Part shown: piece after piece, positions 11,314-63,095 of the stretch | How positions within the stretch are numbered: the stretch's first letter is position 1 | Layout: every line of letters begins with the position of its first letter | Origin: Candidatus Zixiibacteriota bacterium | GTDB taxonomy: Bacteria; Zixibacteria; MSB-5A5; JAABVY01 | Reading direction: 5' to 3' | NCBI GenBank assembly: GCA_011056555.1 | Contig: DSEQ01000009.1 | Span: forward strand, 16,281-80,280 | DNA length: 64,000 nucleotides | Notes under the pieces: model-generated | Told to the model about the DNA's origin: nothing | Databases searched by the model: none | The model's input: only the letters and a program-made list of their open reading frames with translations | Program-made: the position numbers and the translations under genes

Positions 11314-12060
11314 TTACCTTATTCTGTGACGCACCCACAGATTGGGCTCGGTATAAATACCGACGTTTTTCGCCTCATCAATTACAAGGGGCTGCATGCC
11401 CCCTTTTATGGTGTAATCACCGCTTTCGGGAAATTTCATGTCCGTCCATTCCTCCCATTCAGATAAAGTACCCGTAACGGTTATAGATTTGTCCATAATT
11501 TTAATTATCTCGCCACCCAGTCTCAAATGTATGCGGATCCAGGGATCGAATGTTTCTCCATTTTCGGCCTTTTTATCGATATATTCATCAAAGGGCATTG
11601 AAGGGTAGTTGCTCTTCAATGTGGGTCGGAGAGGAGCAAGCAGATTCCCCATACCATATTTTTTTCCAAGCCATATCATGGCCTTAATCATCCTGGCACT
11701 TAACTTCTCATTTCTGAAATCGGGGTGAATCATTATAGCCAGAGCTGAAATGCTGTCGGGTTTACTTTTGACTTGACGATCCCGGAATGCTCGATGCATA
11801 AGTGCATCGAGGCTCGAGGGAAGATCATCAGGCGAGCCATCCCACCTGAGGGGTACTGTATGCCCGGCGGCAATTACTCTATCGTCATCCAAAACAAAAG
11901 CGATCTGATATTGGGCGAATACATTGAATAATGAACTCCAGTAGCGCACATCCCCATGCAGCAAAAACTTCGGCCACGACAATTCACTGAGTTTGTCAAT
12001 CTCGTGCTTCAAATTGGGTTTTTGATCCAGAGTGATGATGTCAAATTCATGAACCGGCAT
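11314..12060 (-). CDS. Hypothetical protein, possibly a GNAT-like acyltransferase
   Basis: 248-aa ORF with coding-like composition. The segment ALAIMIHPDFRNEKLSARMIKAMIWLGKKYG weakly resembles the GNAT acetyl-CoA-binding segment. No stronger motif was seen. Confidence 0.4.
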   Translation of the reverse strand: MPVHEFDIITLDQKPNLKHEIDKLSELSWPKFLLHGDVRYWSSLFNVFAQYQIAFVLDDDRVIAAGHTVPLRWDGSPDDLPSSLDALMHRAFRDRQVKSKPDSISALAIMIHPDFRNEKLSARMIKAMIWLGKKYGMGNLLAPLRPTLKSNYPSMPFDEYIDKKAENGETFDPWIRIHLRLGGEIIKIMDKSITVTGTLSEWEEWTDMKFPESGDYTIKGGMQPLVIDEAKNVGIYTEPNLWVRHRIR

Positions 12061-12172: not shown

Positions 12173-13897
12173 TTACTTCGCGCCTTTTTGCTGAATCCTT
12201 GCCCAGGTATCCCGCAGACCGACAGAACGGTTAAAAACCGGATGATCAGGAGTCGAATCCTCGGAATCCGCAACGAAGTATCCCTGTCGCAAAAATTGGT
12301 AGTATTCCCCCGATTTTGCATCTTTCAATCCCGGCTCGACCTTGCAGCCAGTCAGTATTTCCAGCGAGTCCGGATTGATATTCTTCAAAAAGTCGCCGCC
12401 TTCGGTTGGATCCTCTTTGTCGAATAGACGGTCGAACAATCTGACTTCGGCATCAACAGCATGTTCGGCAGAAACCCAGTGCAACGTGCCCTTCACTCTT
12501 CTTCCATCGGGAGTGCTTCCTCCCCGGGATTCCGGATCATAACTGCAGCGCAATTCCGTAATCTCCCCCGCATCGTTCTTAACAGCCTCATTGCAGGTAA
12601 TGAAGTAGGCATGTTTCAGGCGCACCTCGCGTCCCGGCGCCAGGCGGAAAAACTTCCTGGGCGGATCCTCCAGAAAATCATCCCGCTCTATATATATTTC
12701 ACGCGTGAATACAATAGTCCTGGTTCCGGCGGATTCATCCTCAGGATTATTGACAGCCTCGAACTCCTCTACCTTATCCTCGGGGTAATTCTCGATTACA
12801 ACTTTCAGCGGCCGAAGCACCGCCATCATTCGGACTGCGCGTTTATTCAGGTCCTCGCGCAGGGTATGCTCCAGAAGCGCAATGTCGACCACGCTCTCGC
12901 GCTTGGCCACTCCGATTCTCTCGCAGAATTCACGGATTGACTCGGGCGAGTAGCCCCGGCGCCTGAGACCGGAAATTGTGGGCATGCGCGGATCATCCCA
13001 GCCGCTCACATATTTCTCCTGCACCAGCTGCAGAAGCTTCCGTTTGCTCATAATCGTATAATTCAAGTTCAGACGCGCAAATTCTATCTGACGGGGATGA
13101 TGTACCTCCAGCTGATCCAAAAACCAGTCGTAGAGCGGGCGATGATCTTCGAATTCGAGTGTGCAGATCGAGTGGGTTATGCCCTCGATCGAGTCCGACT
13201 GGCCATGCGCCCAGTCATAGCTGGGATACACGCACCATTTATCTCCCGTACGATGATGCGCGGCATGCTTGATACGGTACATAACCGGATCACGAAGATT
13301 AATATTGCCGGATGCCATATCGATTTTTGCCCGAAGAACCTTGGAACCATCCGGAAAATCGCCATTCTTCATCTTCTCAAATAATTTCAGATTTTCTTCA
13401 ATCGAACGATCCCGGAAGGGACTATTTTTTCCCGGCTCTGTCAGGGTACCGCGATATTCCCTGATTTCCTCGGCATTCAGATCATCAACATACGCCTTGC
13501 CCTCTTTGATAAGCTTGATGGCCCACTCATAGAGCTGCTCGAAGTAGTCCGAGGCATAAAAAAGGCGGTCCTCCCACTTTGCCCCCAGCCATTCAACATC
13601 CTTTATGATCGACTCCACATAGGAGGATTCCTCTTTCAACGGATTTGTATCATCGAACCTGAGATTGAATTTGCCGTTATAATCTTGCGCCAGGCCATAG
13701 TTCAGGCAAATCGACTTGGCATGCCCGATATGCAGCCAGCCGTTGGGCTCGGGCGGAAAACGGGTATGTACGCGGCTGTTATTTTTGCCCTGCTCCAGGT
13801 CCCTGTCGATAATCTCCCTTATGAAATTCGACGGCTTTCCCGGCTTCTCGTTATCATTCTTATTTATCTTATTGTCTTCCATAATATTAATATCCAC
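12173..13897 (-). CDS. glnS: Glutaminyl-tRNA synthetase
   Basis: Class I HIGH motif ([14 protein letters not shown]) and KMSKS variant (IMSKRKL), with GlnRS-type N- and C-terminal beta-barrel regions. The product is 574 aa. Confidence 0.95.
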
Positions 13898-14100
13898 CTT
13901 TGAGCATTCTCATATCATACAATTCGAACAATCCGGAAAATAATTAATGTCTTTTTTCGTTCAAAACAAAAATCTCTCCAGTCTTCCAATTTTGGAAAGC
14001 CTAAATATATAAAAAATCGGCCGCTCCACAACATAAATCAGCAAATCTCAAATCGTGGGCAGGATGACAAAAATTCTCTCGAAAAGCCCACAAAAAGGGC

Positions 14101-14128
14101 TTGACAAAATCGGCATTTAATATATAAT
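14101..14128 (+). promoter_or_regulatory. Near-consensus sigma70-type promoter for the TrpR-family gene and trpB
   Basis: TTGACA (14101-14106), a 16-nt spacer, then TATAAT (14123-14128). It lies 34 nt upstream of the ATG at 14162. Confidence 0.55.
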
Positions 14129-14147
14129 GTTTCTATAAATAGAAACA
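14128..14147. promoter_or_regulatory. Palindromic operator candidate (TGTTTCTAT-aa-ATAGAAACA)
   Basis: Two perfect 9-bp inverted arms around a 2-nt centre. The site starts at the last base of the -10 hexamer and covers the expected transcription start. Confidence 0.5.
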
Positions 14148-14161
14148 CTTGTAGATGAGCT

Positions 14162-14473
14162 ATGCGATCAGTCAACAAAGTAATCAAAATATTCAGCGAA
14201 ATTAATGATCCGACAGTCATGCGGAAACTCTTCAGCGAGATTTTTACTCCTGCTGAGATTCAGGATGTCGCTCTTCGATGGCGTCTGATGGAGATGCTCG
14301 ACCAGGGTATCCCCCAGCGTAAAATCGCTTCGGATCTCGGTATCAGCCTGTGCAAGATAACGCGCGGCTCAAAAATTCTCAAAAAGCGAAATTCTGTATC
14401 GAAGAGACTCTTGAATCAAACAACAGGAGGAAGAAATGCAGGTAAGAAAACGAATCGAAAACCAGCCGGATAA
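14162..14473 (+). CDS. Trp-repressor family (TrpR/YerC/YecD-like) DNA-binding protein
   Basis: 103 aa. The segment [46 protein letters not shown] matches the TrpR-family HTH, including the ITRGS motif. The 3' end overlaps the trpB start by 38 nt. Confidence 0.8.
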
Positions 14474-15656
14474 TAAAGGTTATTTTGGAGAATACGGCGG
14501 ACGATATGTCCCCGAAATACTTATTGAAATTCTGGATGAAATCACCACAGCATATCTTAACTTAAAGGACCAGAAAGGTTTCAAGGAAGAGCTCTCCTAT
14601 TTATACCGGCATTATGTCGGACGCCCCAGTCCGGTTTTCTATGCTCAAAATCTCTCAGCCAGACTGGGCGGCGCCAAAATCTATCTAAAGCGCGAAGATT
14701 TAAACCATACCGGCGCCCACAAAATCAACCACTGCCTGGGCGAGGCGCTGATTGCCAAAAAGATGGGCAAGAAGAAGATAATCGCCGAAACCGGAGCGGG
14801 ACAACATGGCGTCGCATTGGCAACCGCCGCAGCAATTGTCGGGCTGGAATGCGAAATCTATATGGGCGAGGTGGATATGGCCAAGGAGGCGCCCAATGTC
14901 ACCCGTATGCGTATTCTTGGCACCAATGTCGTGCCGGTCGGATTCGGCCTGAAGACGCTTAAAGAAGCTGTTGATGCCGCCTTTGAGGCTTATATGAAGG
15001 ATCCGGTCGACCAGTTCTATGCCATCGGCTCAGTAGTGGGCCCGCATCCATTTCCAATGATGGTGCGCGATTTCCAGCAGGTTGTGGGCGAGGAGGCTAT
15101 GGTTCAGTTCATGGAGCTGACCGGCAGGCTGCCCGATAATCTGGTGGCATGCGTGGGCGGCGGATCAAACGCCATTGGACTTTTCTCGGCCTTCCTCGAC
15201 GAGGACCGGGTCGAGATGTATGGCGTTGAACCAGCAGGGCTTAGCTTCAAGAAAGGTGAACACGCCGCGACCCTGACCCTGGGTTCTCCGGGGATGATTC
15301 ATGGCTTTAAATGCTATCTTCTGCAGGATGACCAGGGGCGTCCACTCCCGGTCTATTCAATTGCTTCCGGCCTCGATTACCCCGGAGTCGGCCCCCAGCA
15401 CAGCTACCTGAAAGACATCGGGCGGGTGCAGTATAAAACCATTAATGATAAAGAGGCGCTGGATGCCTTCTTTACGCTTTCGAGGGAAGAGGGGATCATT
15501 CCGGCTCTTGAAAGCGCGCATGCCGTTGCTTATGCCATCAAGATGGCTCCCGATCTGGATCAGGATAAGACCATCCTCGTGAACCTCTCCGGAAGAGGGG
15601 ACAAGGATATAGAATATGTGGTTGAAAAATATGGCAAGAAATATGGGATAGCATGA
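14436..15656 (+). CDS. trpB: Tryptophan synthase beta chain (no trpA adjacent)
   Basis: Motifs [39 protein letters not shown] (PLP lysine), GGGSNAIG and [15 protein letters not shown]. An AGGAGG Shine-Dalgarno sits just upstream of the ATG. Confidence 0.95.
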
Positions 15657-32054: not shown

Positions 32055-33362
32055 ATGAATAGACCTGAATCATATCATGCTAATACCGTATGGGTTTTTA
32101 TTCTGACGCTCGTCGTTTTTACGGTTGTTTCCGTTCCGGCATTCTGTTACGAGATCGACACAACAAGAGTCCGCGAGAAGCCCGAAGAGAATATAACATT
32201 CGGGGAGGCGGTGCTGGCTGCGCCGTCATTCATCCTGAATCTCCCCTTCTGGGTGCTGAAAAATGTGTCCGATTTCACGGTAAACGAAATCGTCTATTCC
32301 AAACCCATTCAGGCGCTTTTTGCTTTGAAACTCAGGCCAATTTGGGGATTCTACCCCACAGGGGGCTATAATTCCAACGCCGGCGTTAAAGCTGGAATTG
32401 TCTATAGAGTAAAAGATCTTCTCTCGGAGGAGGAGGATTTTAAGGTCAAAGCCTCCTACTCCACCCACGACTACCAGACCTACAGCCTGAGATACAAGAT
32501 CATGCCTCAGAATTCCATATTCAATGAAGTGCATTTCAATTTTAGTTATAGACAGAAGCCCCGCGAAAGCTTTTATGGCATCGGTAACAGGACCTCAGAT
32601 GACAATGAGGTTGCCTTTAACCTCGAAAACGGATTCATGGGCTTCGGCTGGAACCATGAGATTTCCAGTCAGTTCTCAACCGGAGTTGACTTCTCCTACC
32701 GGATACTGAATATCTATGACGGGCAGGACCCATCATTGACCGGCTCTCTCGATTCTATCCAAGCAAAATTCGATCTCAGCGAGGATGAGCTGGCGAATGC
32801 ACGTGTTCTGACTGTGGGCATGAACCTGAAATATGATTGGCGCGACCACCCCGGGCAGACCACATCTGGAGGATACCACGCCCTTGAGCTGTCCTACAAC
32901 AGGGGCAGAGGACAACTTCAAGACCTTGAATATTTCCTGGCTTCGGTTAGTCTATATCAATTCATTCACATTTACAGGCAAAGAGTGCTGGTTCTTAATT
33001 TCCGCACGGAGACCATTGGCAAAACCGATGGATCGCCGGATTTGCCATTTTATCTGAGACCAGCACTGGGTGGTGAAGAGAGTCTGCATGGATATAAGGA
33101 GCATCGCTTCATAGATAATACAACCATGCTGGCGGCGGTAGAATACCGCTTTCCCCTCTTGCAGGGTGTGGACGGCTTATTGTTTTTTGAAGAGGGTAGA
33201 GTTTTTGATGATTTTTCTAAGGATTTCGATCTGAAAAACTGGCATTATTCTACCGGCATCGGTATCAGGTTGTGGGATCAGGAAGGCCTGAGATTAAACG
33301 GCTATGCTGCTTTCAGCAAAGAGAGTCCGCAATTTTACGTGCATTTGTCCGAAACACTCTAA
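32055..33362 (+). CDS. Omp85/bacterial surface antigen (D15) family outer-membrane barrel without recognisable POTRA domains
   Basis: 435 aa with an N-terminal signal-like helix. The C-terminal region LRPALGGEESLHGYKEHRFIDNTTMLAAVEYRFPL...STGIGIRL resembles the conserved Omp85 barrel end. Alternating beta-strand pattern throughout. Confidence 0.7.
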   Translation: MNRPESYHANTVWVFILTLVVFTVVSVPAFCYEIDTTRVREKPEENITFGEAVLAAPSFILNLPFWVLKNVSDFTVNEIVYSKPIQALFALKLRPIWGFYPTGGYNSNAGVKAGIVYRVKDLLSEEEDFKVKASYSTHDYQTYSLRYKIMPQNSIFNEVHFNFSYRQKPRESFYGIGNRTSDDNEVAFNLENGFMGFGWNHEISSQFSTGVDFSYRILNIYDGQDPSLTGSLDSIQAKFDLSEDELANARVLTVGMNLKYDWRDHPGQTTSGGYHALELSYNRGRGQLQDLEYFLASVSLYQFIHIYRQRVLVLNFRTETIGKTDGSPDLPFYLRPALGGEESLHGYKEHRFIDNTTMLAAVEYRFPLLQGVDGLLFFEEGRVFDDFSKDFDLKNWHYSTGIGIRLWDQEGLRLNGYAAFSKESPQFYVHLSETL

Positions 33363-33373
33363 GGATGCACATT

Positions 33374-35086
33374 ATGAAAAATTATATGAAAATATCTTTA
33401 TTGCTGCTGTCACTGATGCTTATGCTGGGTTGCAGCGGCTACAAACCAGTCTTGCAACCGGAGGGTCCCTACTGGGTTGACGACGATAAACAGGATATCC
33501 CGGAACCATCATCCAAGGACCCAAACTTAGCCTGGATGTCCATCAAGCGTTCCAGCTTCGACCAGATTGAAGACGGCCTCGATCTGGAACGGAATTTCAG
33601 GATTCTATCCGATGAGCGTGAAGAAGCGGCCAATATCAACAGTTTCGACGAGGTTCCCAACTGCACCTGGTTCACCAACCGTCATGGTTTCGCACGCATG
33701 ACTCCGGACGAGATCGCCGAAGGAGTCGATCTCACGCCGGGACCGGACACAAGCGGACCATGGCTTGTATTTCGTCCTAAGGTGCAGGGTACCACTCCCG
33801 GTTTCTGGATCGAGGATTCACGGGGAGATCAATATGTCATCAAATTCGACCCGAAGGGGTATCCTGAGATGGCTACGGCGGCGGCCGCCATGGCTTCCCG
33901 ATATTTCCATGCTTGCGGTTATAATGTGCCCCAGGAAACAATTGTATATTATCGTCCCGAAATCCTTCAGGTCAAAGAAGGGGTGAAGTTTGAAGACAAA
34001 GCTGGTGTGAAACGTGAATTCACTCAGCAGGACTTAGAGGATATTCTTAAACGAGTACATCACGAGCCGGACGGGAGAATTCGGTCACTGGCCTCGCTTT
34101 CTCTGGGAATTCATGGTAAAATCAAGGGCCCTTTCAGCTATAGCGGAAGACGGAGCGATGATCCCAATGACTGGTTCGATCACCAGGACAGGCGGGAATT
34201 GCGCGGGCTGTATGTCATCGGATCGTTCATAAATCATTATGACCTGAAGGACCAGAATTCCCTCGATATCTATGTGGAGGAAAACGGAAATAAATTTCTA
34301 AAGCATTTCCTGATCGATTTCGGTTCCACCTTCGGCTCTGACGGCCAGGGGCCAAAGCCGCCTATTAAGGGCTATGCCAATATGATCGATCTTCGTGACG
34401 CCTTCGTATCCCTGATAACTGTCGGCCTCAAGACATGGGACTGGCGGGGAGGTGGCGAGGTAATCTACCCATCCATCGGCTATTTCGAAGCGGATATCTT
34501 TCAGCCCGATAAGTTCGATCCGATCTACCCCAATCCCGCTTTTGAGGACAAAACCGACCGCGACTGCTACTGGGGAGCCAAAATCGTTATGGCATTCCGC
34601 GACAGTGATTTACGCGCCCTGATCGAAACCGGGCAGTATTCCAATCCCCAAGCCGAGGAATATCTGTTCGAAACCCTGAAAAAGCGCCGCGACAAGATTG
34701 GACGATTCTGGTTTTCAAAGGTCAATCCCCTGGATTATTTTGAAACGGAATATGCTGGCAGTGATCTCAGAATCAGGTTCGATGACCTGGGAATCAAATA
34801 CGAGCTCTGGCCCCAAGATGCGGTCTATGACTATGAAATCAGATACGGCAAGGAACTTATCCGCAAGGATCGGGTTAAAACTGGCGAAATAATTCTGACA
34901 CAGGATGATTTAAATCGCATGACCTCGGCATTTAAAGCCACGGATAAAAAAGAGGATTATATTTACAGGATGGATATCAGAACCACCAGAGGGAATGGTG
35001 ATCCGAGCAAGCCAACCCGATTGCATTTCTGGTATCATCATGATGAAAATAAATTCTCATTGGTGGGAGTCGAACATCTGGATTGA
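33374..35086 (+). CDS. Lipoprotein with a protein-kinase-like (PKL) fold signature
   Basis: Lipobox LMLGCSG (Cys codon at 33431). Kinase-like motifs are QYVIKF (Lys at 33842-33844), HYDLKDQN (34235-34258) and IDFG (DFG at 34316-34324). I chose the start at 33374 (AAGGA lies 8 nt upstream); 33365 and 33386 are alternatives. The track ORF start at 33272 overlaps the upstream gene. Confidence 0.6.
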   Translation: MKNYMKISLLLLSLMLMLGCSGYKPVLQPEGPYWVDDDKQDIPEPSSKDPNLAWMSIKRSSFDQIEDGLDLERNFRILSDEREEAANINSFDEVPNCTWFTNRHGFARMTPDEIAEGVDLTPGPDTSGPWLVFRPKVQGTTPGFWIEDSRGDQYVIKFDPKGYPEMATAAAAMASRYFHACGYNVPQETIVYYRPEILQVKEGVKFEDKAGVKREFTQQDLEDILKRVHHEPDGRIRSLASLSLGIHGKIKGPFSYSGRRSDDPNDWFDHQDRRELRGLYVIGSFINHYDLKDQNSLDIYVEENGNKFLKHFLIDFGSTFGSDGQGPKPPIKGYANMIDLRDAFVSLITVGLKTWDWRGGGEVIYPSIGYFEADIFQPDKFDPIYPNPAFEDKTDRDCYWGAKIVMAFRDSDLRALIETGQYSNPQAEEYLFETLKKRRDKIGRFWFSKVNPLDYFETEYAGSDLRIRFDDLGIKYELWPQDAVYDYEIRYGKELIRKDRVKTGEIILTQDDLNRMTSAFKATDKKEDYIYRMDIRTTRGNGDPSKPTRLHFWYHHDENKFSLVGVEHLD

Positions 35087-35089
35087 TTT

Positions 35090-36319
35090 GTGATCATGAA
35101 GGTAAGTATTTTTATACCCATATCAATTTTATGCCTGTTTCAGGCATTCACATCTCTCCATGCAGAATCCAATGATCCACATGCAATCAGTGGAAGTGAT
35201 TTTGATCATTTAATGAATATCCAGAATGTTGAATTACAGAATAAACTCGAGAATATATTTCCCGAGAGTGAAGGTTATCTGGTAAGCGGACCTCTGTGCG
35301 ACGATACGTTCGAGGACTCTGCGTATTTTTATTGCGGTGCGGTCAGGGTTATTTGCCCAAACCTTAAACTATATAAGCAAGGTATAGACATAGCCGCCGG
35401 CATGGACAGTCTCACTGCAATTACAGATTATCCGGATCCAAGCGGATCATACTATGCCTTTGAAAAATATTATACTTATCATAATGGTAACCTGGTCGAT
35501 ACGTTCAAGTTTGAAACCGCAAATTCCGTTCGGTACGAGCTTGCCTTAAATAAGGAGCTGATATTCAGCCCGCTTCGAAGTGATGTCATCCGCATGCCCG
35601 ATTCAGAACGTAAGGAAATGCATGATTATTTCCTTCAATATGACTCCGGGAATATTCCGGCAGAGCAGCTTTACATACATTACGTACCCTATATCATCGA
35701 GGGCTATCAGAATTACAAAGAGTTCCTTTTAAGTCATGCCGAGATCGATCTCGATTTCATAAGCGGCGTGACCGCCTTTGTACCCACTGAAGAAACTCTG
35801 CAATGGTTCAGGGAGAATGCTCCGCAGGAGGCATATCCCAATAAGGAAGCGTCCAAATTTGAGGAGGAAATTCATGAATTCTTCGAGCGCGGCGGTGATT
35901 TGCGCGTCATCCAGACTTTAACGAAAGAAGGCTTCGACACACTTCAAAGCGGGGAATATTTCTATGCTGTCAGCCCTGCATACAAAATTCGTTTTGGACG
36001 GGAGCTTTTGCGCGAGGAGGTCAAACGTATCGAAGAGGAAACGGGCAAGAAGGTCCCGCGCGCCAATCATGCCTTTTTATTCCCGGGCGAAGCGGTACTG
36101 ACCGCCGGGGCTTTCTGGATAGATACAGACAAGGAAAACAAGCTGGTCAAGGTCAATGCCCAGTCCGGCCATTATTTCTACAGCAATGTTTCCCCGACTA
36201 TCCGCGAGGATATCTCCGAACGTTCCGACCATTACCTGACCACGCTGGGTCATTTTTTCAAGGCCCTTGACAGCCTGCAAATTCCCTGCGATAAGATTCT
36301 CATAAGTAAACTCCAATGA
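35090..36319 (+). CDS. Hypothetical secreted protein (signal peptide, no recognisable domain), visibly AT-rich
   Basis: The N-terminal VSIFIPISILCLFQAFTSLHAESN looks like a signal peptide. The start is GTG at 35090 or ATG at 35096, 3-9 nt after the upstream stop. The ORF is long, with several Cys residues consistent with a periplasmic protein. Confidence 0.5.
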   Translation: MIMKVSIFIPISILCLFQAFTSLHAESNDPHAISGSDFDHLMNIQNVELQNKLENIFPESEGYLVSGPLCDDTFEDSAYFYCGAVRVICPNLKLYKQGIDIAAGMDSLTAITDYPDPSGSYYAFEKYYTYHNGNLVDTFKFETANSVRYELALNKELIFSPLRSDVIRMPDSERKEMHDYFLQYDSGNIPAEQLYIHYVPYIIEGYQNYKEFLLSHAEIDLDFISGVTAFVPTEETLQWFRENAPQEAYPNKEASKFEEEIHEFFERGGDLRVIQTLTKEGFDTLQSGEYFYAVSPAYKIRFGRELLREEVKRIEEETGKKVPRANHAFLFPGEAVLTAGAFWIDTDKENKLVKVNAQSGHYFYSNVSPTIREDISERSDHYLTTLGHFFKALDSLQIPCDKILISKLQ

Positions 36320-40986: not shown

Positions 40987-43758
40987 CTATGTTTCAAACC
41001 GCTTAACCACTCTTTCCGCAGTCTCCTTTACCAATGGGTCGGGATCATTTTGAGCGTCGTGGATTAGCTTCCTCATATTCTCGGAAGCATTAGCGGTAAC
41101 ATTATAGATCGCACAACACCTGAGCCAATTATCGTGACCCTTGATAAGGCGCTCCAGGGCTTCCTCCCGGGTACGGGTCTTGACACGGAAAAACTCCTCG
41201 CCTTTGCGAAGCACTGTTTCGACCGGAACATCATCGAGTATCGGGAGAATATATTTCTTTACGTCGCGACTCAGGAGATTATCGAGAAACTCGATAGCAT
41301 TGGCCTGAAGCACCTTTTTGCCGCTCACGAACCCCTGATAGGCATAAAATATGTCTGTGGGAGGATAGACCAGACCCAGGAGCCGGAATATCCGTTCGAG
41401 GTTGTACTGCTGTTTTTCTTCCAGCGCCTTTTTCAGGAGTTTGGAACCCGGTGATTCATCGAATTGCCTGTGGGAATATAGGATCTGGTAAATTTCATAA
41501 TAATCCTTGATTTCATTCAGAAGGACCTGTTCCACCTTCCCATGGTCAAAGCTGAGCTCCGAATAGACGCTTCGCAGGCTGTTCAGGGCTTTGACCACAT
41601 GATATTTCAGGGAGGGTTCCACCTTATCCAGGTTGTCGGTCAAAACATCAACTGTCTCCTGCTCAGGAATCAGCTTCATCACCCTTGGTATATTTTTGCG
41701 AATATTGTAATCGACTGCGCGGTCGTGCAGGTAATCGCTGAGGGTCCCCAGCACGCCTGTTCCGAAATCGGCCAGCGCTTTGCGAACATTTGCGCGCAAA
41801 TCCCTGTCGGTCAATCTCTCGATCAGCCAGGGTATATATTTGCGCCGTTTCAAACGGCCGATGCATTCTATCGCATTTTTCACCACCTCGATCGACTTAT
41901 CATTAAGCAGAATCTCTATGTAGCCGCTGAATTCCGGTTTGTTCACCACGCCCAGAATCCGGGCGACCTGAATACGGCTCAATTCCGCCTCCTCAGATAT
42001 ATCGCGCATGGCCGCCTTTATGAGTTCCTCATCGACCAGCTCCCTTTCCTCCGGACGGCCATAATCGGTAAGATATGCCAGAGCTGCATTGACTATGCGA
42101 GGGTCATCGCTGCGCAGGTATTCCCGCAGTTTTTCCAGAGTATCTCCCTCGGTTCGGGAGCATATGAAGTGCACGGCCTCCGAACGGACCTCAATGTCCT
42201 CATCAGTCAGCATCTTCTCTACTATCTCCATATGCGAGCGGTCGCCATGCTCGAGAAGCACCTTCAGCGCATCGAGCCTGATGTCGGCCGACTCATGCCT
42301 CAAATGAGGAACTACTTTTTCCACCCTCTCAACATTCTTCACCGAACGCAGCATCTCCAGCGCATATCCAATCTGCCGATCATTGGGGCTGTCCAGCGAA
42401 TTTATCAGCGCATTGATGGTGGAGCGGTCATCGATCTGAACGGTGAGCCTGGAATAGTCGATCTCGCGCTTTTCAATGGCTCTGCGGAATGAATTCAGAT
42501 ATTCCTTCCGCATGAAGACAGTCAGGGTTAACCAGATAAGCAGTAATCCAATCACGATCAGACTGATTTCCTTTACCGTCAGATGAAAGACGAGGGTGCA
42601 GAGAAGCAGAAGGGCGCCGGCAAATCCGCGGAACCACCTGTCCACGAACATATCGATAAATATTTTTGTGCGCTTTTTTACCTCCAGCGGTATGGGCAAA
42701 AACAGCAATTCCCTGCCGGTCTTGTCCATAGAATATTTTATACTGCCATCCACTCCCCTCAGCATTATACCGGCAATCAAGCCGGGGAAGAGAAACATCG
42801 CCGCTGAGCCAAGCAATAATCCCGTCGGCAGAAACATAATGATACCGCCCACCCCCAAAAAGCGAATTAGCCTGTATGTAAAAAACAATTGCAGTATTAG
42901 TGAAGCCATGCTGAGCCAGCTGTAGAACTGTCCGAAGAATGATGTCAGATCAGCTTTTTCCGGATAAGCAGCTTTGGATACGGTTTTGAACTGCCAATCC
43001 ACAAATGAAGCCACCATCATGGTTATAGCTATAATACCCACAAGCAATAACAGGTGGCGTGACCTGAAAATCGTCTTTGTAATCTGCCCCAGCTTTTCCC
43101 CGGGGGGCTCGCGATGGCGAGCGGAACGCTGAAGTTCCTTCTCCGAAACAGTCTTCTTCTTCCAGATTACGGCTACCAGTAAAGCTACAATTACGAGCGG
43201 TACCATACAGATAAATAAGAGGTTTTCCGTGCCTACATCCAGGGCCTTGACGAGGAAACTGGTGACCTGTCCACCGGTGAAGGCGCCGATAATCCCCCCC
43301 AGTCCGAGTAATGTGAAGACTCGTTTGGCCTGTGCAGAATTATACACGGCATTGGCCAGAAGCCAGAATTGGGAGGTCGTAAGCACGCCATAGATGCTCA
43401 CCCATGTATAAAATAGATAATAAACCCAGGCGCTGGAGATCTGGACCAGCCAGCGCAGAATAAAAAGATTCACTATAATAATGGCAAGAGTGAAAATAAT
43501 CAGTCGATTCAGCTTCAACGAACGGCTGGCCCTGGAATAAAGTGTAACAACAGGAGCGGTCACCAGGGCGGTGATAATGAAAACAAGCGGGAGCATCTCC
43601 GAACTGACCCTCACCAGAAACAGCGAATCCCTGGCGGGTTTAAGCAGGTAATAGCTCAAAAGGATCAGGTAATAACTGGACAGCATCAGCAGGGTCAGTG
43701 CGATTTCACCCTTCCTGATGTCAAATATCGATTTGAGAAAACTCTTCATCGAATTCAT
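40987..43758 (-). CDS. TLC/AAA-family (ATP:ADP antiporter-like, MFS-type) membrane domain fused to a C-terminal HEAT-repeat domain
   Basis: 923 aa. The N-terminal LLSYYLLKPARDSLFL resembles the TLC-family start and is followed by ~11-12 TM segments. The C-terminal ~480 aa carry repeated HEAT-like units (ADIRLDALKVLLEHGD, DEDIEVRSEAVHFI, DPRIVNAALAYL, DPLVKETAERV). Confidence 0.7.
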   Translation of the reverse strand: MNSMKSFLKSIFDIRKGEIALTLLMLSSYYLILLSYYLLKPARDSLFLVRVSSEMLPLVFIITALVTAPVVTLYSRASRSLKLNRLIIFTLAIIIVNLFILRWLVQISSAWVYYLFYTWVSIYGVLTTSQFWLLANAVYNSAQAKRVFTLLGLGGIIGAFTGGQVTSFLVKALDVGTENLLFICMVPLVIVALLVAVIWKKKTVSEKELQRSARHREPPGEKLGQITKTIFRSRHLLLLVGIIAITMMVASFVDWQFKTVSKAAYPEKADLTSFFGQFYSWLSMASLILQLFFTYRLIRFLGVGGIIMFLPTGLLLGSAAMFLFPGLIAGIMLRGVDGSIKYSMDKTGRELLFLPIPLEVKKRTKIFIDMFVDRWFRGFAGALLLLCTLVFHLTVKEISLIVIGLLLIWLTLTVFMRKEYLNSFRRAIEKREIDYSRLTVQIDDRSTINALINSLDSPNDRQIGYALEMLRSVKNVERVEKVVPHLRHESADIRLDALKVLLEHGDRSHMEIVEKMLTDEDIEVRSEAVHFICSRTEGDTLEKLREYLRSDDPRIVNAALAYLTDYGRPEERELVDEELIKAAMRDISEEAELSRIQVARILGVVNKPEFSGYIEILLNDKSIEVVKNAIECIGRLKRRKYIPWLIERLTDRDLRANVRKALADFGTGVLGTLSDYLHDRAVDYNIRKNIPRVMKLIPEQETVDVLTDNLDKVEPSLKYHVVKALNSLRSVYSELSFDHGKVEQVLLNEIKDYYEIYQILYSHRQFDESPGSKLLKKALEEKQQYNLERIFRLLGLVYPPTDIFYAYQGFVSGKKVLQANAIEFLDNLLSRDVKKYILPILDDVPVETVLRKGEEFFRVKTRTREEALERLIKGHDNWLRCCAIYNVTANASENMRKLIHDAQNDPDPLVKETAERVVKRFET

Positions 43759-47574: not shown

Positions 47575-48990
47575 GTGAAAAAGTACCTGTCAGTAACATT
47601 GAAACCCATATTTGCACTTGTGGCAATCCTGACCCTGGCGGTCTTTACCGGATGCAGTGACGATGACAACAATAGTTCGGTCGGTCCTGATGACGGCGAT
47701 GAATCTTTCGCCTTTTTATTCGATGATATGATCCAGGCCGGTGACAGCATGAACCTTTCTGCCGATAGCAACTGGCTCGTGAGCGGCTTCGTGTTTGTCG
47801 AGGAAGGCGCCGCATTGTCGATAGAACCGGGCGCGGTCATACGATTTAGGCCGGGTACCGGAGTCAATGCCAGCGCTTTGATAATTGCCCGGGGCGGAAG
47901 GATCTGGGCCAACGGCACGCAGGATAATCCCATCATCTTTACAGCGGAAGTTGACGATGTCAATGATCCCAGCGACCTGGGCCTCTTCGACAACGGTCTC
48001 TGGGGCGGTTTGATCATCCTTGGAAGCGCAACCGTGAATACCCCTACAGGTCTCAGCCAGATCGAAGGCATCCCTTCGGACGAAATTCGCGGCGAATACG
48101 GCGGAAATGACGACAACGACAATTCCGGGTCGCTCCGCTATGTCTCTATCCGTCACGGCGGATCGGAAATCGGGGCTGCCAACGAGATCAACGGTTTGAC
48201 CCTGGGCGGAGTCGGCAGACAGACTGTAATTGAATATGTCGAAATCTACTCCAATTTTGATGATGGTGTGGAATTCTTCGGCGGTGTACCCAGCACCAGG
48301 AACATCGCGGTCGCCTTCTGCGGCGATGACGCTTTTGATTATGATGAAGGGTTCCGCGGCAATGGCCAGTTCTGGTTTGCGGTGCAACATGAAAAAGTCG
48401 GCAACAGGTGCGGCGAGCATGACGGCGCCACAGGCGATGAGCAGGGTACACCCTTTGCTCATCCTATCATCTCCAACGCCACCTACATCGGCTCCGGAAA
48501 CCGCTCCGCCAACAGCGACAACGATTACGCAATCATCATGCGTGATAACGCAGGCGGTGAATATCACAACAGCATCTTCTACGGTTTCCAGGGCTCCGGC
48601 TTGCATGTCGAGGACAAGACCGGCGAAGCGATCGAACACAGCCGTGCCCGGCTTGAGGCCGGCGATATCGTCTTCAATAACAATATCTGGTACAGCTTTG
48701 GCGCAGGCAACACAATGAACGATGTTTTCCAGCAGGAGTTCGTCAGAACCGTTATGGCTCAGCAGGGCTGGACCAACGAAATGGTCGATCCGTTAATCAA
48801 CTCAGTGGCCAGGCTTAATACCGGCGCATTGAATCCGGTGCCCAGTGCATCCGGACCTGCCGCCAATGCGGCTGATCAGCCCGCAGGCGCTTTCTTCCAG
48901 AATGTCAGCTACAAAGGCGCATTTCAGCCCGGTTCTGCAAACTGGCTTAAGGGATGGACGGCCCTGGATCATTACGGGTTCCTGCAATAA
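47575..48990 (+). CDS. Lipoprotein of unknown function, partner of the TonB-dependent receptor
   Basis: Lipobox LAVFTGCSDDD. The Gly/Asp-rich repetitive segments (GGLIILGSATVN, GLTLGGVGRQTVIEYVEIY, DDGVEFFGG, DDAFDYDEG) suggest a beta-helix-like fold. It starts 48 nt after the receptor gene. Confidence 0.6.
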   Translation: MKKYLSVTLKPIFALVAILTLAVFTGCSDDDNNSSVGPDDGDESFAFLFDDMIQAGDSMNLSADSNWLVSGFVFVEEGAALSIEPGAVIRFRPGTGVNASALIIARGGRIWANGTQDNPIIFTAEVDDVNDPSDLGLFDNGLWGGLIILGSATVNTPTGLSQIEGIPSDEIRGEYGGNDDNDNSGSLRYVSIRHGGSEIGAANEINGLTLGGVGRQTVIEYVEIYSNFDDGVEFFGGVPSTRNIAVAFCGDDAFDYDEGFRGNGQFWFAVQHEKVGNRCGEHDGATGDEQGTPFAHPIISNATYIGSGNRSANSDNDYAIIMRDNAGGEYHNSIFYGFQGSGLHVEDKTGEAIEHSRARLEAGDIVFNNNIWYSFGAGNTMNDVFQQEFVRTVMAQQGWTNEMVDPLINSVARLNTGALNPVPSASGPAANAADQPAGAFFQNVSYKGAFQPGSANWLKGWTALDHYGFLQ

Positions 48991-58475: not shown

Positions 58476-58649
58476 GGGTGAAAATCATAAAAAGAAACCC
58501 ACCGCTAAAGCGGATAGGGCACCCAAGCATTAGAAAAGATACTATTGGAGCGTTTAATATATTGCTATTCAAGTAATGAGATCAATTTATATTTGCTTGC
58601 AAAAAAACGATTTGCGACTATTCTATATAATTAGATGAAAGGAGAAGCG

Positions 58650-59087
58650 ATGGATGTAATTAATCTATTTGCCAAGCTTAATTTAGAAAAAATTGACTTT
58701 GATGGCAGTATAACAGCAACAACACCGGATCAATTCATTGCGCAATTTAAGAAAGTGTGTTCATGTCAGGCATCAAAACACAACCAGTCTATTGTATATG
58801 TATGGCATACAGAGAAAGCAATATCTCGTTTAAGGGGAAAAAGTACAATTGTTTACATTGGTAAAACCGATGCTACATTTTACACAAGACATTATCGCTA
58901 TGCCGAGACGGAGGCTTCAGGTAATAACTGGAAAAGATATAGCTATATCATTAATCAATATGGGGCAATAGGATTTTGTTGTGCGAGAATTCCTTCGCCA
59001 AATACTCCTCTGGAAATAGAAAACAGGTTGCTTCAAAAATATTTCGAGGAACATCTGGAACTACCCCCCATAAACAAAAGCCTATAA
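58650..59087 (+). CDS. Small AT-rich ORF, possibly a GIY-YIG-superfamily nuclease-like protein
   Basis: 145 aa from the ATG at 58650, with AAAGGAG 5 nt upstream. IVYVW...(spacer)...IVYIGKT, a downstream Arg (YTRHYRY) and LEIENRLLQKYFEEHLELPPIN loosely match the GIY, YIG, R, E and N order. The spacer between the GIY and YIG elements is longer than canonical. Confidence 0.4.
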   Translation: MDVINLFAKLNLEKIDFDGSITATTPDQFIAQFKKVCSCQASKHNQSIVYVWHTEKAISRLRGKSTIVYIGKTDATFYTRHYRYAETEASGNNWKRYSYIINQYGAIGFCCARIPSPNTPLEIENRLLQKYFEEHLELPPINKSL

Positions 59088-59269: not shown

Positions 59270-59297
59270 AAAAAAAGCATGATCACAGGGATCATGC
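59270..59297 (-). terminator. Rho-independent terminator after the GatE-like gene
   Basis: The minus strand reads GCATGATC-cctgt-GATCATGC (perfect 8 bp) followed by TTTTTTT. It lies 29 nt downstream of the stop at 59326. Confidence 0.7.
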
Positions 59298-59325
59298 CCT
59301 ACAATTAATTCAAATGGGAGTTTTA

Positions 59326-61263
59326 TTACGATGTCGCCGGATGTTTGGCTTTGACTTGCTCTTTGACCATATCCTTGAGCTTTTCCGGGGGGAACTTGCC
59401 GCGGGTTTCTGATTTGACCTGACCAATAATATACTCTATCAGCTTTTCTTCGGATTTGAATCTGTCGCCATCAAGCTCTGCGGCTTTGCTTTCTATTAGA
59501 GAGCTTACATCACTCTCAGTCATCGGTATTAAATTCAATTCATCGAAAAGCCTCTCCAGCGGAATATTCGTGCCATTTGATGAAAGATAATCGAGAGCTA
59601 CATAGACCGCTTCGTTTGGCAATTCACGTTGTCCGGTTTGCTCCAGAATGTAGGCCAGGAGATCATCGGAAATAAATATCAGGTCCCTGCCCTGGCGTTT
59701 CAGATTTTTCAGATAGCCCTCGAAAAGATATGCCAGGAAAACCGGGTCAGTGAGATTGCGCTTCAATAACCGGTCGTACATAAGTGCAAATTTTGAACGT
59801 CCCAGGGAATAGACCAGTTCATCGGACAGCCCCAGTTCCATCCAGCGTTCATCGCGGCTGTAGGCCGGGTCCGGAAGAACCGCCCTGAGCTTATCCAGAC
59901 GATCTTTGGTGATTGCCACCGGCGAGGAATCGGTGTCGGGATACATACGGTCCGGGCCGGGAAGTATCCGTTCGAAATCCGTAATGCCCTCGCCAATATG
60001 CTGACGGGTTTCATTGGGCACGCCCTCGGTCGCCTCCACAGCACGGATCTTCACTTCCGACAGCGCCATGTTGACATCAGCTTCAGTGCCCCAGGTTATA
60101 ATAATCGCATCGGTATGACGCATATGGAAGACCTTTTTAATCTCGTCGCAGATTTCATCCGGCAGTTCGGCACAACTGATATCGTCGGAATGGATGATGT
60201 TCGGATATTTATCGATGCAGGCGATTACCTTAATTCGTCCGGAGATCTCATCGGCAAAGGTCTTATTCGGCTGGGTCTTGTAATTGAGTATGCCCGCAAA
60301 GCGTTCCAGCATGATACCGCCAACCTTGCCGCCATTGTTTATGACCTCGGATATCACCGGATGCGCTATCTTCTTGAAAATCTCGGTCAGGTCCTTCTTC
60401 TCGCTGTGAATTGTACTGGGGGATATTCCGCGTTTGCGCAGTTCTGATTTTATCTCCAGAAGCGATTTTTGCCTTAAACCCTCGACCTCGGTCAGGCGCT
60501 TGATATATCCGGTTTTATCAATGCCCTTGAGCTCCACCCGAGTGCCGCCGTCGATGGAAACATTGACATCCTGACGGGTTACTCCAATCCCGCGCCGTAC
60601 CCGTCCCGATGAGCGCAGCACGCGTCCGATAACCTCATCGACTTCCATCGCCTCGGTCGGAGTTTGCATATCCGGATAGGTCACAATCTCGACCAAAGGA
60701 GTTGAAAGACGATCTGTCCTGAACCTGATCTGATGTCCAATATCGTGCACCTCGCGGCAGGCATCCTCCTCAAGAGCGACTTGAATAATCCTGATTTTGC
60801 GGTCCTTGTATGGTATCCACCCTTCCACACCGACAATGGCGGTGCGCTGGAAGCCTGTGGGGATCGAGCCATCCAGATACTGCTTTCTGGTAATATGAAG
60901 TTCATCCACAATATGGCAGTTGAAGAGCATGGAAATCTGGAGGGCGATATCGAGAGCCTCCTGGTTGATCGGAAAAGGCGGGGTATCATCCATCTCATAG
61001 GTGCAGACATTATCCCGGAAGAGCTCGTAAACCACCTCTTTTTTGGTCTTGAATTCCATCAAGGCGGTGCCGTCATACTCTCCCAGTTCGGAAAGTGTGG
61101 GGCGCATATGTCTTACGATTAAACCGTCGGGAGGACCGTCAACATAACCGACCGGGCAGCGGCAGAACAGCTTTTTGGCGGTATCGAGCTGTTGATGAAC
61201 CTCCAGCCCACACTTGAAGCCAAGCTCTTTGAATCTGCTGTCGTCTAAATTATCCCAGTTCAT
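59326..61263 (-). CDS. gatE: GatE-like protein (archaeal-type Glu-tRNA(Gln) amidotransferase subunit E architecture)
   Basis: 645 aa. GatB/E cradle motifs are GLEVHQQLDTAKKLFCRCP, LEEDACRE and RQDVNVSIDGGTRVELKG. A long insertion domain follows the cradle; GatB lacks one. Then come GVPNETRQ...LPGPDRMYPDTD and a YqeY-like tail (IIGQVKSETRGKFPPEKLKDMV). Confidence 0.8.
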   Translation of the reverse strand: MNWDNLDDSRFKELGFKCGLEVHQQLDTAKKLFCRCPVGYVDGPPDGLIVRHMRPTLSELGEYDGTALMEFKTKKEVVYELFRDNVCTYEMDDTPPFPINQEALDIALQISMLFNCHIVDELHITRKQYLDGSIPTGFQRTAIVGVEGWIPYKDRKIRIIQVALEEDACREVHDIGHQIRFRTDRLSTPLVEIVTYPDMQTPTEAMEVDEVIGRVLRSSGRVRRGIGVTRQDVNVSIDGGTRVELKGIDKTGYIKRLTEVEGLRQKSLLEIKSELRKRGISPSTIHSEKKDLTEIFKKIAHPVISEVINNGGKVGGIMLERFAGILNYKTQPNKTFADEISGRIKVIACIDKYPNIIHSDDISCAELPDEICDEIKKVFHMRHTDAIIITWGTEADVNMALSEVKIRAVEATEGVPNETRQHIGEGITDFERILPGPDRMYPDTDSSPVAITKDRLDKLRAVLPDPAYSRDERWMELGLSDELVYSLGRSKFALMYDRLLKRNLTDPVFLAYLFEGYLKNLKRQGRDLIFISDDLLAYILEQTGQRELPNEAVYVALDYLSSNGTNIPLERLFDELNLIPMTESDVSSLIESKAAELDGDRFKSEEKLIEYIIGQVKSETRGKFPPEKLKDMVKEQVKAKHPATS

Positions 61264-61382
61264 AACTTGTGAAATATATCACTTTAATCTCTCAATATAC
61301 CAAATCTACAGGCCTTGGCAACCGATTTCGTGTTTTTTTTTGATGTTTGACAACACGACCGAAAATGTTATCTTTTGCCCTT

Positions 61383-63095
61383 ATGAAAAGGAAGTTCCGT
61401 ATAGCGCTGGCCCAGATCAACTCCACGGTGGGAGCGCTGGATCAAAACCTGGATAAAATCATTTCTTACGCCAGAAGGGCCGAGGAGCATGGCTGCGATA
61501 TAGTGGCCTATCCGGAGCTGGCCCTGACCGGCTATCCCCCTGAGGACCTGCTCCTGAAGAAGGCCTTCAATCTTGATGTTTCCAGGACTCTTAAGAAGCT
61601 GATTAAGGAAAAGATAAGGCCGATCATGGTGTTCGGTTATCCTGATTTCGACGGCGGGAAGTATAATTCTGCAGCGGTAATCTATAATAATAAGCTGGTC
61701 GCCTCGGTCAATAAATTCATGCTGCCCAATTACGGCGTCTTTGATGAAAAGCGCTATTTCACCCCCGGAAACGGAACATATATATTCGATCTCGGCTTCA
61801 TGCGTTTCGGTGTAAATATCTGTGAGGATATCTGGGTCACTCCCGGCACCACGGAGATTCTGACCTTGCATGGCGCCAATCTGGTTATCAATATCTCCGC
61901 CTCTCCCTACACTATTCGCAAGGAAAAATACCGCGAAACCATGATACAGCGGATAGTAAAGCGATGTCATATGTTTCTGGCCTTCTGCAATATGGTTGGC
62001 GGTCAGGATGAACTGGTTTTTGACGGCTATTCGATGATATTCAATCCCGAAGGGGAGATGCTGGCCTCTGCGAAGACATTCGAGGAGGATATGATCTTCG
62101 CCGAAATCGACCCTCTGGAGTCCGAGGCCAAACGGTTCACGATTACGGTTCCCCGGCAGATACCTCCGGTGGAAATTAAAAGACTGGGCGATTTCAAAAA
62201 CCGCAAAAGAACTAAAGCAATCAAATCAGTTATAAATCCCCCACCGTCCCGGGAGGAGGAAATATACAAGGCTCTGATTCTGGGAACAACTGATTATATC
62301 CAGAAGAATGGTTTTTCCGAAGTCGTTGTAGGGCTTTCCGGCGGGATAGATTCGGCCGTGACCGCTGTCCTGGCCTACGACTGCGTAGGACCGGAGCGAA
62401 TGCACTTAGTCTTTATGCCCTCGGAGTATACTCAGGATCAATCGACCAAAGACGCTAAAAAGCTGGCCCAGAATTTGGGAATACCTCTCCAGACATTTCC
62501 GATTGACAGCACATTTCAATGCTACAAGGAGATGCTCAAGGGGAGTTTCAAGGGTCTTAAGGAGGATATTACCGAGGAAAACCTTCAGGCGCGAATCCGC
62601 GGCAATATCCTGATGGCGCTTTCGAATAAATTCAAATGGCTGGTGCTTACGACCGGAAACAAATCCGAGGTTTCAGTCGGATACTCCACACTGTATGGCG
62701 ACACTGCCGGCGGTTTTGCAGTCATAAAGGATTTATATAAAACCGAGGTTTTCAAGCTGGCGCGCTACTATAATCGTAAGGAGAAGCGAACGGTGATACC
62801 TCGTTCGGTAATAGAGAAGCCGCCCTCGGCAGAACTGCGCCACAACCAGAAAGACACCGACAGCCTTCCTCCCTATGAAGTGCTCGATCCGATTCTGAAA
62901 CTATACATAGAGCAGGACAGGGGCCAAAAGGAGATCATAGATCGCGGGTATGACGAGGAACTTGTAAACCGTATCATAAGGATGGTTGATCTGGCAGAAT
63001 ACAAACGCCGCCAGTCCCCGCCCGGCGTCAAGATTACCCCCAAGGCCTTTGGCCGCGATCGCAGAATGCCTATCACACAGCGGTATTTCAGATAA
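61383..63095 (+). CDS. nadE: Glutamine-dependent NAD+ synthetase (CN-hydrolase glutaminase domain plus NAD synthetase domain)
   Basis: The N-terminal nitrilase-like domain has RIALAQIN, YPELALTGY and NICEDIW with the catalytic Cys. The C-terminal domain has the PP-loop VGLSGGIDSA and ELR...QKD. I chose the start at 61383; 61347 and 61365 are possible. Confidence 0.9.
   Translation: MKRKFRIALAQINSTVGALDQNLDKIISYARRAEEHGCDIVAYPELALTGYPPEDLLLKKAFNLDVSRTLKKLIKEKIRPIMVFGYPDFDGGKYNSAAVIYNNKLVASVNKFMLPNYGVFDEKRYFTPGNGTYIFDLGFMRFGVNICEDIWVTPGTTEILTLHGANLVINISASPYTIRKEKYRETMIQRIVKRCHMFLAFCNMVGGQDELVFDGYSMIFNPEGEMLASAKTFEEDMIFAEIDPLESEAKRFTITVPRQIPPVEIKRLGDFKNRKRTKAIKSVINPPPSREEEIYKALILGTTDYIQKNGFSEVVVGLSGGIDSAVTAVLAYDCVGPERMHLVFMPSEYTQDQSTKDAKKLAQNLGIPLQTFPIDSTFQCYKEMLKGSFKGLKEDITEENLQARIRGNILMALSNKFKWLVLTTGNKSEVSVGYSTLYGDTAGGFAVIKDLYKTEVFKLARYYNRKEKRTVIPRSVIEKPPSAELRHNQKDTDSLPPYEVLDPILKLYIEQDRGQKEIIDRGYDEELVNRIIRMVDLAEYKRRQSPPGVKITPKAFGRDRRMPITQRYFR

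Follow-up and report, generated by a model that had tools for sequence, protein, structure and literature searches.

A gene for the archaeal amidotransferase subunit GatE and a gene for glutaminyl-tRNA synthetase on one Zixibacteria contig

The amidotransferase GatDE must make Gln-tRNA(Gln) in archaea, which are without glutaminyl-tRNA synthetase (GlnRS). GatDE is universal in archaea (PMC2330236), and reviews up to 2022 describe it as archaea-only. Scenarios have been built on this statement, namely the co-evolution of GatDE with archaeal tRNA-Gln as the reason why GlnRS never entered archaea, and a model of subpopulations of the last universal common ancestor. The kinase and tunnelled-ammonia mechanism of the archaeal enzyme has been reviewed (PMC2330236). 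Mutation of His15, Glu157 or Glu184 in M. thermautotrophicus GatE abolishes kinase and transamidase activity, and M. thermautotrophicus GatDE reads the A1-U72 pair of tRNA-Gln (PMC2330236). A GXXAXGX motif in the tail of canonical GatDE has been implicated in tRNA discrimination (PMC2811023). Here we describe a gatE gene in a stretch of 64,000 nucleotides from a Candidatus Zixiibacteriota bacterium (positions 16,281 to 80,280 of contig DSEQ01000009.1, GenBank assembly GCA_011056555.1), which is called the window below and also carries glnS, the gene of GlnRS. We think it likely, from sequence comparison, that the product of this gene is the GatE part of a functional and complete GatDE long resident in a Zixibacteria chromosome, with gatD unlinked in the same genome, and that the system goes back to an ancient transfer of Thermoplasmatota-type GatDE.

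The GatE protein, its bacterial host and its subfamily

The gatE gene (59326..61263, minus strand) begins with ATG and encodes a 645-aa Glu-tRNA(Gln) amidotransferase subunit E, an assignment that is based on GatE equivalog models and alignment to PDB structures. In NCBIfam, the product passes the GatE equivalogs NF003107 (534.1 bits against a cut-off of 456; residues 9-639 on positions 4-626 of 630) and TIGR00134 (full length, 460.9 bits against 319.55). All six GatB models of NCBIfam stay far under their cut-offs, the best being NF004012 (157.3 against 338), and TIGR00133 scores 138.9 against 314.8. The protein aligns continuously, over about residues 7-637, to P. abyssi GatE (1zq1_C, 6.9e-98) and M. 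thermautotrophicus GatE (2d6f_C, 2.1e-96), whereas the best GatB in the PDB reaches only 5.9e-30 and covers the cradle alone (residues 85-275). An earlier note, made by a model from the letters alone, had recognized a 645-aa GatE layout with cradle, insertion, ETR motif and YqeY-like tail, and Pfam, NCBIfam and the PDB agree with this description.

The N-terminal part of the cradle, about residues 1-290 (60394..61263, minus strand), holds the Mg2+ ligands. These are His23 of GLEVHQQ, the first Glu of ALEEDACRE and the Glu of PLVEI; all three are intact, and they align to His15, Glu157 and Glu184 of M. thermautotrophicus GatE. The motifs RQDVNVS and NETRQ...FERILPGPDRMYPDTD are also found. Pfam GatB_N matches with 169 bits, and residues 17-455 of the protein cover only profile positions 2-275 of 277, which means that about 160 amino acids are inserted inside the cradle. 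The core of this AspRS-like (GAD) insertion lies at residues 304-401 (60061..60354, minus strand); Pfam GAD gives it 19.2 bits, under its cut-off of 23.4, and the alignment to 1zq1_C and 2d6f_C is unbroken across the insertion (residues 290-450). The AspRS-like insertion is the feature that sets GatE apart from GatB. The YqeY-like tail occupies residues 508-636 (59356..59742, minus strand; Pfam GatB_Yqey PF02637, 32.5 bits against a cut-off of 27). In the tail, the GXXAXGX motif is missing; the window protein reads EEKLIEY at the site of GMGAMGL/P in P. abyssi and M. thermautotrophicus. Apart from this tail motif, every sequence criterion places the window protein in the GatE family. It matches NCBI HEQ98366.1 and HDS01838.1, both named 'GatE [candidate division Zixibacteria bacterium]', at 100% identity, and relatives at 71-90% GatE identity retain all motifs. 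To judge by these comparisons, gatE is under purifying selection.

The contig is bacterial and of Gram-negative type. The window contains a Nuo operon with a fused NuoCD, NuoG, NuoF, NuoE, NuoH, NuoI and NuoJ, a TonB-dependent receptor with Plug and CarboxypepD_reg domains, phosphoribosyl pyrophosphate synthase, alanine racemase, a KefB/C-type antiporter, and two-component genes for a PAS histidine kinase and response regulators. A bacterial context of gatE genes of the same subfamily is also seen in the loci L008 (a Por_Secre_tail of the type IX secretion system and a bacterial glutamyl-tRNA synthetase, GluRS), L010 (LptE) and L011 (LpoB). An identical GatE occurs on contigs of up to 927,514 bp, and the order nadE, gatE, two open reading frames (ORFs) and a cysteine desulfurase gene was recovered in at least five independent assemblies (ENA, Logan and JGI data sets). 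The GC content of gatE is 0.504 (0.587 at third codon positions, GC3), and its codon usage correlates with that of the pooled window genes at r = 0.89; it is as native as any gene tested. The independent assemblies and the native codon usage therefore exclude contamination, chimerism and recent insertion. Of the pitfalls that the earlier note had named, neither an archaeal contig nor a long GatB was found.

To place the protein, we used the 120 nearest homologs and the best 150 clusters at 50% identity; an exhaustive search gave 3437 matches at E <= 1e-3. In a neighbour-joining tree rooted at the midpoint, all 120 nearest homologs and about 45 of the 150 best clusters form one clade that is defined by common motifs. 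After ETR, the subfamily has FER(I/V)LP where canonical archaeal GatE has (Y/F)xRP(L/M)P; around Glu157 it has EED(A/S)CR in place of EEDAAR; before Glu184 it has (T/A)DRL(S/G) in place of LDRLG; and its tail has no conserved motif at the site of the canonical GxxAxGP-LMG. The tail motif is missing across the whole subfamily, true Thermoplasmatota included. Window GatE shares 35-36% identity with the proteins of P. abyssi and M. thermautotrophicus, 51-52% with those of Thermoplasmatota and 51-56% with other subfamily members. GatD is far more conserved, with 71-78% identity across the boundary between archaea and bacteria.

Members of the subfamily come from metagenome-assembled genomes (MAGs) labelled Zixibacteria, Eisenbacteria, Edwardsbacteria, Aminicenantes, CSSED10-310, Deltaproteobacteria, Bacteroidetes, Ignavibacteria, Phycisphaerae and Clostridiales. 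Labels of this kind can be wrong; in the window, L008, L010 and L011 the neighbouring genes themselves show a bacterial setting. The archaeal members are Thermoplasmatota, some of them verified by gene context, and one borderline Heimdallarchaeota sequence. The bacterial lineages are as distant from one another as each is from the archaeal members. Because GatDE is universal in archaea, real Thermoplasmatota lie inside the subfamily and the bacterial lineages are mutually distant, one or a few ancient transfers from archaea to bacteria would be the simplest history, in which the direction is inferred. The gene pair would thus have come from an ancient archaea-to-bacteria transfer of a Thermoplasmatota-type GatDE and would now be present in several bacterial candidate phyla.

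GatD, tRNA-Gln and the preferred reading against its rivals

No gatD lies beside gatE, as the earlier note had seen. Searches by tblastn with two GatD probes (E up to 1) revealed no GatD- or asparaginase-like sequence in the whole 64-kb window, and the closest relatives (L001, L003-L007, L010) likewise have no gatD at up to 10 kb from gatE. Taken together, the region from -59 kb (window) to +10 kb (L003) of gatE is free of gatD, and the two genes are neither adjacent nor co-transcribed there. A search with the GatD of L009 as probe gave nothing traceable to the window organism among the best 120 of 8000 matches. A search with the Zixibacterial GatD of L011 as probe led to the sequence P0259, which is HEQ97769.1, 'MAG TPA: GatD [candidate division Zixibacteria bacterium]'. 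The organism label is the same for HEQ97769.1 and for the window GatE, HEQ98366.1, and 597 numbers separate the two accessions. Since accession numbers are consecutive within a submitted assembly, we infer that both proteins come from one MAG.

Another GatD sequence, P0288, differs from P0259 by one non-catalytic residue. It is found in the SRA run SRR5214154 (L015), which also holds the exact window gatE (L004), and in one of two JGI samples with consecutive numbers, Ga0209205 and Ga0209206, the other of which contains gatE. The 21 kb around P0288, on a 470-kb JGI contig, correlate with the window in tetranucleotide composition at r = 0.96; as controls, the window's own thirds give 0.958-0.962 and the other GatDE loci (L008-L011) 0.62-0.86. 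P0288 is a full-length GatD with GatD_N and both asparaginase domains. The E-value is 4e-122 for the alignment of its full length to GatD crystal structures and about 1e-121 for the GatD chains of 1zq1 and 2d6f, and its catalytic motifs GTGGTIAS, HGTD and RKMH are conserved. From the accession series, the co-occurrence in samples and the composition, we conclude that the window organism very probably encodes GatD. Looked up as exact sequences, neither P0259 nor the window GlnRS read from GTG returned a record, which is probably due to differing start-codon calls or an NCBI-only source. As a separate observation, the 943-aa cluster representative P0342 corresponds to GatE in residues 10-583 (37% identity to the window protein) and to full-length GatD in residues 491-943 (55% to P0288); a natural GatE-GatD fusion and an artefact of gene calling or assembly are the two explanations.

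Unlinking of gatD and gatE is normal in bacteria. Among the loci compared here, the two genes are adjacent only in archaeal ones: in L018/L019, from Thermoplasmatota with TBP and Trm56 present, they are adjacent and divergent. The order in L009 is gatD-glnA-gatE. On the Zixibacteria MAG contig L011, gatD is 6 kb from gatE on the opposite strand, and in two further cases the GatD and GatE matches are on contigs of the same size (149,800 and 75,426 bp). L009 (CP070751.1, 3717581-3739518) belongs to a 5.16-Mb single contig labelled 'Thermoplasmata archaeon', which is very large for this class. Identity to the proteins encoded on contigs with archaeal markers (L018) is 75% for its GatE and 87% for its GatD, and the 22 kb examined contain no decisive domain marker; an archaeal affiliation of L009 is plausible. 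No second GatB/E paralog and no GlnRS gene was found in any of the relatives' loci examined.

The full-length glnS that the earlier note had placed on the same contig is confirmed. It is located 45 kb from gatE (12173..13897, minus strand) and encodes a complete bacterial GlnRS (TIGR00440, 758 bits against a cut-off of 426) with HIGH at residue 56 and MSKR at residue 283. The best model for this protein is 'GlnRS/YqeY fusion' (NF011291, 899 bits, positions 11-561 of 769), which makes it, by sequence, a GlnRS of the Deinococcus type that lacks the YqeY tail. The 248-aa ORF downstream of glnS (11314-12060) has no Pfam match and is not a detached YqeY domain. The glnS gene looks functional. The earlier note had also considered an organism in which gatD lies elsewhere and GlnRS does not function, and our results give a different picture: gatD probably exists, and glnS is apparently working beside it.

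Scans of the window for tRNAs and Rfam families were empty. The closed Zixibacteria genome L008 (CP070742.1) has a bacterial-type gltX 1.6 kb from gatE, and a tRNA-Gln(CUG) gene 107 nt after gltX and 3 kb downstream of gatE (gltX/tRNA-Gln(CUG) at 13485-15114, plus strand; a nearby tRNA-Glu(CUC) at 6810-6884, minus strand). This tRNA-Gln has U1-A72, G73, G2-C71 and G3-C70 and is of bacterial type. A bacterial GatDE that acts on such a tRNA would therefore not use the A1-U72 pair, in contrast to the M. thermautotrophicus enzyme. Recognition of U1-A72 may be reflected in the remodelled motifs of tail and cradle. Thermoplasmatota have the same tail and cradle motifs, and thus these are not specifically bacterial adaptations. 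The glnA gene is beside gatD and gatE in L009 and near gatE in L008. Two peculiarities of the L008 tRNAs were also observed: in tRNA-Gln, which has a lowish Rfam score of 42.7 bits, the pairs 6-67 (G.A) and 7-66 (A.C) at the base of the acceptor stem are mismatched, and tRNA-Glu(CUC) has a G1.U72 wobble.

By analogy with the archaeal enzyme, the cradle, the AspRS-like insertion and the YqeY-like tail of GatE would together bind Glu-tRNA(Gln), and GatE would phosphorylate the gamma-carboxyl group with ATP at the His/Glu/Glu Mg2+ site. GatD would release ammonia from Gln or Asn, and the ammonia would pass through an intramolecular tunnel to GatE, which would amidate the intermediate. This chemistry would follow by homology, because the active site is conserved and GatD is present. 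Glu-tRNA(Gln) is the predicted substrate because the subfamily must serve Thermoplasmatota, which as archaea are without GlnRS, and because gatE is near gltX and tRNA-Gln in L008 and near glnA in L008 and L009. Alongside GlnRS, GatDE may clear or use Glu-tRNA(Gln) made by a non-discriminating GluRS and may provide a parallel or back-up route to Gln-tRNA(Gln). We favor the idea that GluRS of this lineage still mischarges tRNA-Gln, so that the amidotransferase would stay useful.

Four points weigh against a working GatDE of this kind. First, gatD is not on the contig of gatE, and the link between them consists of accession proximity, co-occurrence and composition instead of a reading of the whole assembly. 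Second, a single tRNA-Gln has been seen in a Zixibacterium with GatDE (L008), and it has U1-A72, the bacterial pair, instead of the A1-U72 read by archaeal GatDE; recognition would have to differ from that of the characterized enzyme. Third, a complete GlnRS makes an indirect route to Gln-tRNA look unnecessary. Fourth, the GXXAXGX motif of the tail, which has been implicated in the tRNA discrimination of canonical GatDE, is absent.

The last two points are shared by the rival that survives best, namely that the bacterial GatDE has been retargeted to amidate Asp-tRNA(Asn) for Asn synthesis or has a relaxed or dual tRNA specificity. With GlnRS present, Gln-tRNA does not depend on GatDE, the discrimination motif of the tail is lost in window GatE, and bacteria that have both GlnRS and an amidotransferase, such as Deinococcus, Thermus and Bdellovibrio, use the latter for Asn (PMC4206432). 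However, true Thermoplasmatota GatE has lost the same motif and yet must make Gln-tRNA(Gln). Furthermore, the GatE insertion domain, which is kept here, has been modelled to clash with class II AspRS (PMC2330236), and the genomic context points to gltX, tRNA-Gln and glnA, not to aspS or tRNA-Asn. We regard retargeting as unlikely.

The next rival is an orphan GatE that has no GatD and takes free ammonia, or ammonia from the N-terminal CN-hydrolase domain of NadE. The nadE gene (61347..63095, plus strand) encodes a glutamine-dependent NAD+ synthetase with CN_hydrolase and NAD_synthase domains (NF010588, 729 bits) and is divergent from gatE. The lack of gatD within 59 kb on one side (window) and 10 kb on the other (L003) would fit an orphan, and the divergent nadE-gatE pair is conserved down to 75% GatE identity. 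However, a Zixibacterial GatD with a matching accession series, sample and nucleotide signature exists, and gatD is on the contig of gatE in all four other lineages with enough sequence (L009, L011, L018/L019 and the 149,800/75,426-bp contigs). The adjacency of nadE is restricted to the window's own clade (window, L003-L006, L010) and is missing from every other lineage examined, namely L008, L009, L011 and L018. As a feature of one clade, this synteny does not point to a functional link, and nadE was rejected as a functional partner. An orphan GatE is very improbable.

The weakest rival, that gatE is an artefact of archaeal contamination, a chimera, a mis-binned contig or a long GatB, has the archaea-only descriptions of GatDE and the heterogeneous MAG labels among the matches (Ignavibacteria, Bacteroidetes, Clostridiales, Phycisphaerae) on its side, but is hardly conceivable for a gene with native codon usage that is contiguous with unmistakably bacterial genes in an order assembled independently at least five times, and for a protein that has the GatE-specific insertion and is far under the GatB cut-offs. 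We therefore retain a complete GatDE in Zixibacteria as the preferred reading. The earlier note had offered two explanations. A horizontally acquired gatE with gatD elsewhere is now supported by the bacterial contig, the subfamily in common with Thermoplasmatota and the matching Zixibacterial gatD. Recruitment for another substrate or for ammonia fed by NadE found no support, because nadE adjacency is clade-limited and a cognate GatD is available.

A more far-reaching view is tentative, and we would not rank it as probable. The subfamily may have moved between Thermoplasmatota-like archaea and one or more ancestors of bacterial candidate phyla (Zixibacteria, Eisenbacteria, Edwardsbacteria, Aminicenantes, CSSED10-310 and others), adapted to a tRNA-Gln with U1-A72 by remodelling of its tail and cradle, and been kept by selection despite GlnRS, either as one of two parallel Gln routes or as a GatDE re-purposed for Asn-tRNA(Asn) or tRNA-dependent nitrogen handling. 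If this is true, GatDE is not an archaeal signature, and bacteria have two parallel routes to Gln-tRNA(Gln) or a re-purposed GatDE.

Genes around gatE

The immediate neighbours, a terminator, an AT-rich ORF and the divergent nadE, were all found as the earlier note had described them. A hairpin scan identified an 11-bp hairpin followed by a T-run, resembling an intrinsic terminator, 26 nt past the gatE stop codon (59274..59300, minus strand). Such terminator-like sites number 9 in the region, against 2.7 expected. A sigma-70-like promoter candidate is located 30 nt upstream of the gatE start (61294..61321, minus strand) and has 10 of 12 hexamer matches and a TG extension; it is a consensus match only, and such sites in the region are not above the shuffled expectation. 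The intergenic region between the divergent gatE and nadE is 83 nt. The gatE gene looks monocistronic. In L010, a long-read assembly with 75% GatE identity, nadE was called as two ORFs of 215 and 179 aa (8165-9348, minus strand), which is probably a frameshift error and not a real split.

The AT-rich ORF of 150 aa (58635-59087, plus strand) is convergent with gatE. Its GC content is 0.364 and its GC3 is 0.298. It is a strong compositional outlier, with a codon-usage r of 0.35 against 0.80-0.89 for its neighbours. No match was found in Pfam or NCBIfam, and the ORF is kept at the same position in every assembly of the window organism. It may be a short foreign insertion, or it may not be a genuine gene.

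Several other genes of the window were observed. A 923-aa protein (40987-43758, minus strand) has a TLC-type ATP/ADP (NTP/NDP exchange) transporter domain (PF03219, residues 101-420) and C-terminal HEAT repeats; such a fusion of a TLC transporter with HEAT repeats is unusual for a free-living bacterium. Three successive large ORFs of 435, 604 and 409 aa (32055-36319, plus strand) and a 471-aa ORF just past the TonB-dependent receptor (47575-48990, plus strand) are without a Pfam match at E <= 1e-4.

Comparison with known systems

The system is an ordinary GatDE in an unexpected host and not a new enzyme. GatDE in a bacterium with GlnRS contradicts the archaea-only statement of the reviews. Among open-access papers and preprints, we found no paper on bacterial GatDE, in a search where 'GatE' is confounded with the word 'gate'. 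The NCBI pipeline already names GatE and GatD correctly in bacterial MAGs. Thus, the gap lies in the literature and not in annotation. A native, selected GatDE together with glnS on one bacterial chromosome would mean that the two systems are not mutually exclusive, and the exclusivity argument becomes testable. It would also mean that GatDE can operate, or at least persist, with a bacterial-type tRNA-Gln. The subfamily may be taken as a natural experiment in which an amidotransferase re-learns tRNA identity, from A1-U72 to U1-A72, with the tail motif lost.

Archaeal GatDE (2D6F, 1ZQ1) and the window system are alike in the four parts of GatE, which are the cradle, the AspRS-like insertion, the helical region and the YqeY-like tail, in the His/Glu/Glu Mg2+ site and the RQD motif, and in a cognate GatD with asparaginase motifs. 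Window GatE differs from the crystallized archaeal proteins in having FERILP for (Y/F)xRPLP, EEDACR for EEDAAR and TDRLS for LDRLG. The system differs further in its bacterial host with GlnRS, in its unlinked gatD, and in a tRNA-Gln that, from the relative L008, likely has U1-A72 instead of A1-U72. The Thermoplasmatota-type GatDE of Thermoplasmatales archaeon ex4572_165 (L018/L019) is closer: it belongs to the same subfamily and has all diagnostic motifs, with 51-52% identity in GatE and 71-73% in GatD. There, gatD and gatE are adjacent and divergent among TBP and Trm56, and GlnRS is absent, whereas the window has a lone gatE in a bacterial chromosome.

GatB of GatCAB shares with window GatE a paralogous cradle, a YqeY-type tail, kinase/amidotransferase chemistry and a bacterial host. 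In contrast to window GatE, it has no insertion, is about 480 aa long and has the amidase-family GatA and GatC as partners. In GatB, the tail carries a Lys-rich motif, and U1-A72 is read by a 3-10 turn (PMC2811023). Deinococcus, Thermus and Bdellovibrio resemble the window organism in having GlnRS and an amidotransferase in one bacterial genome (PMC4206432); they use GatCAB for Asn-tRNA(Asn), whereas the window has GatDE, which is specific for Glu-tRNA(Gln) where it has been characterized. In summary, the window breaks the literature definition of an 'archaeal signature protein', which implies an archaeal host without GlnRS, by having gatE on a bacterial contig with a complete glnS.

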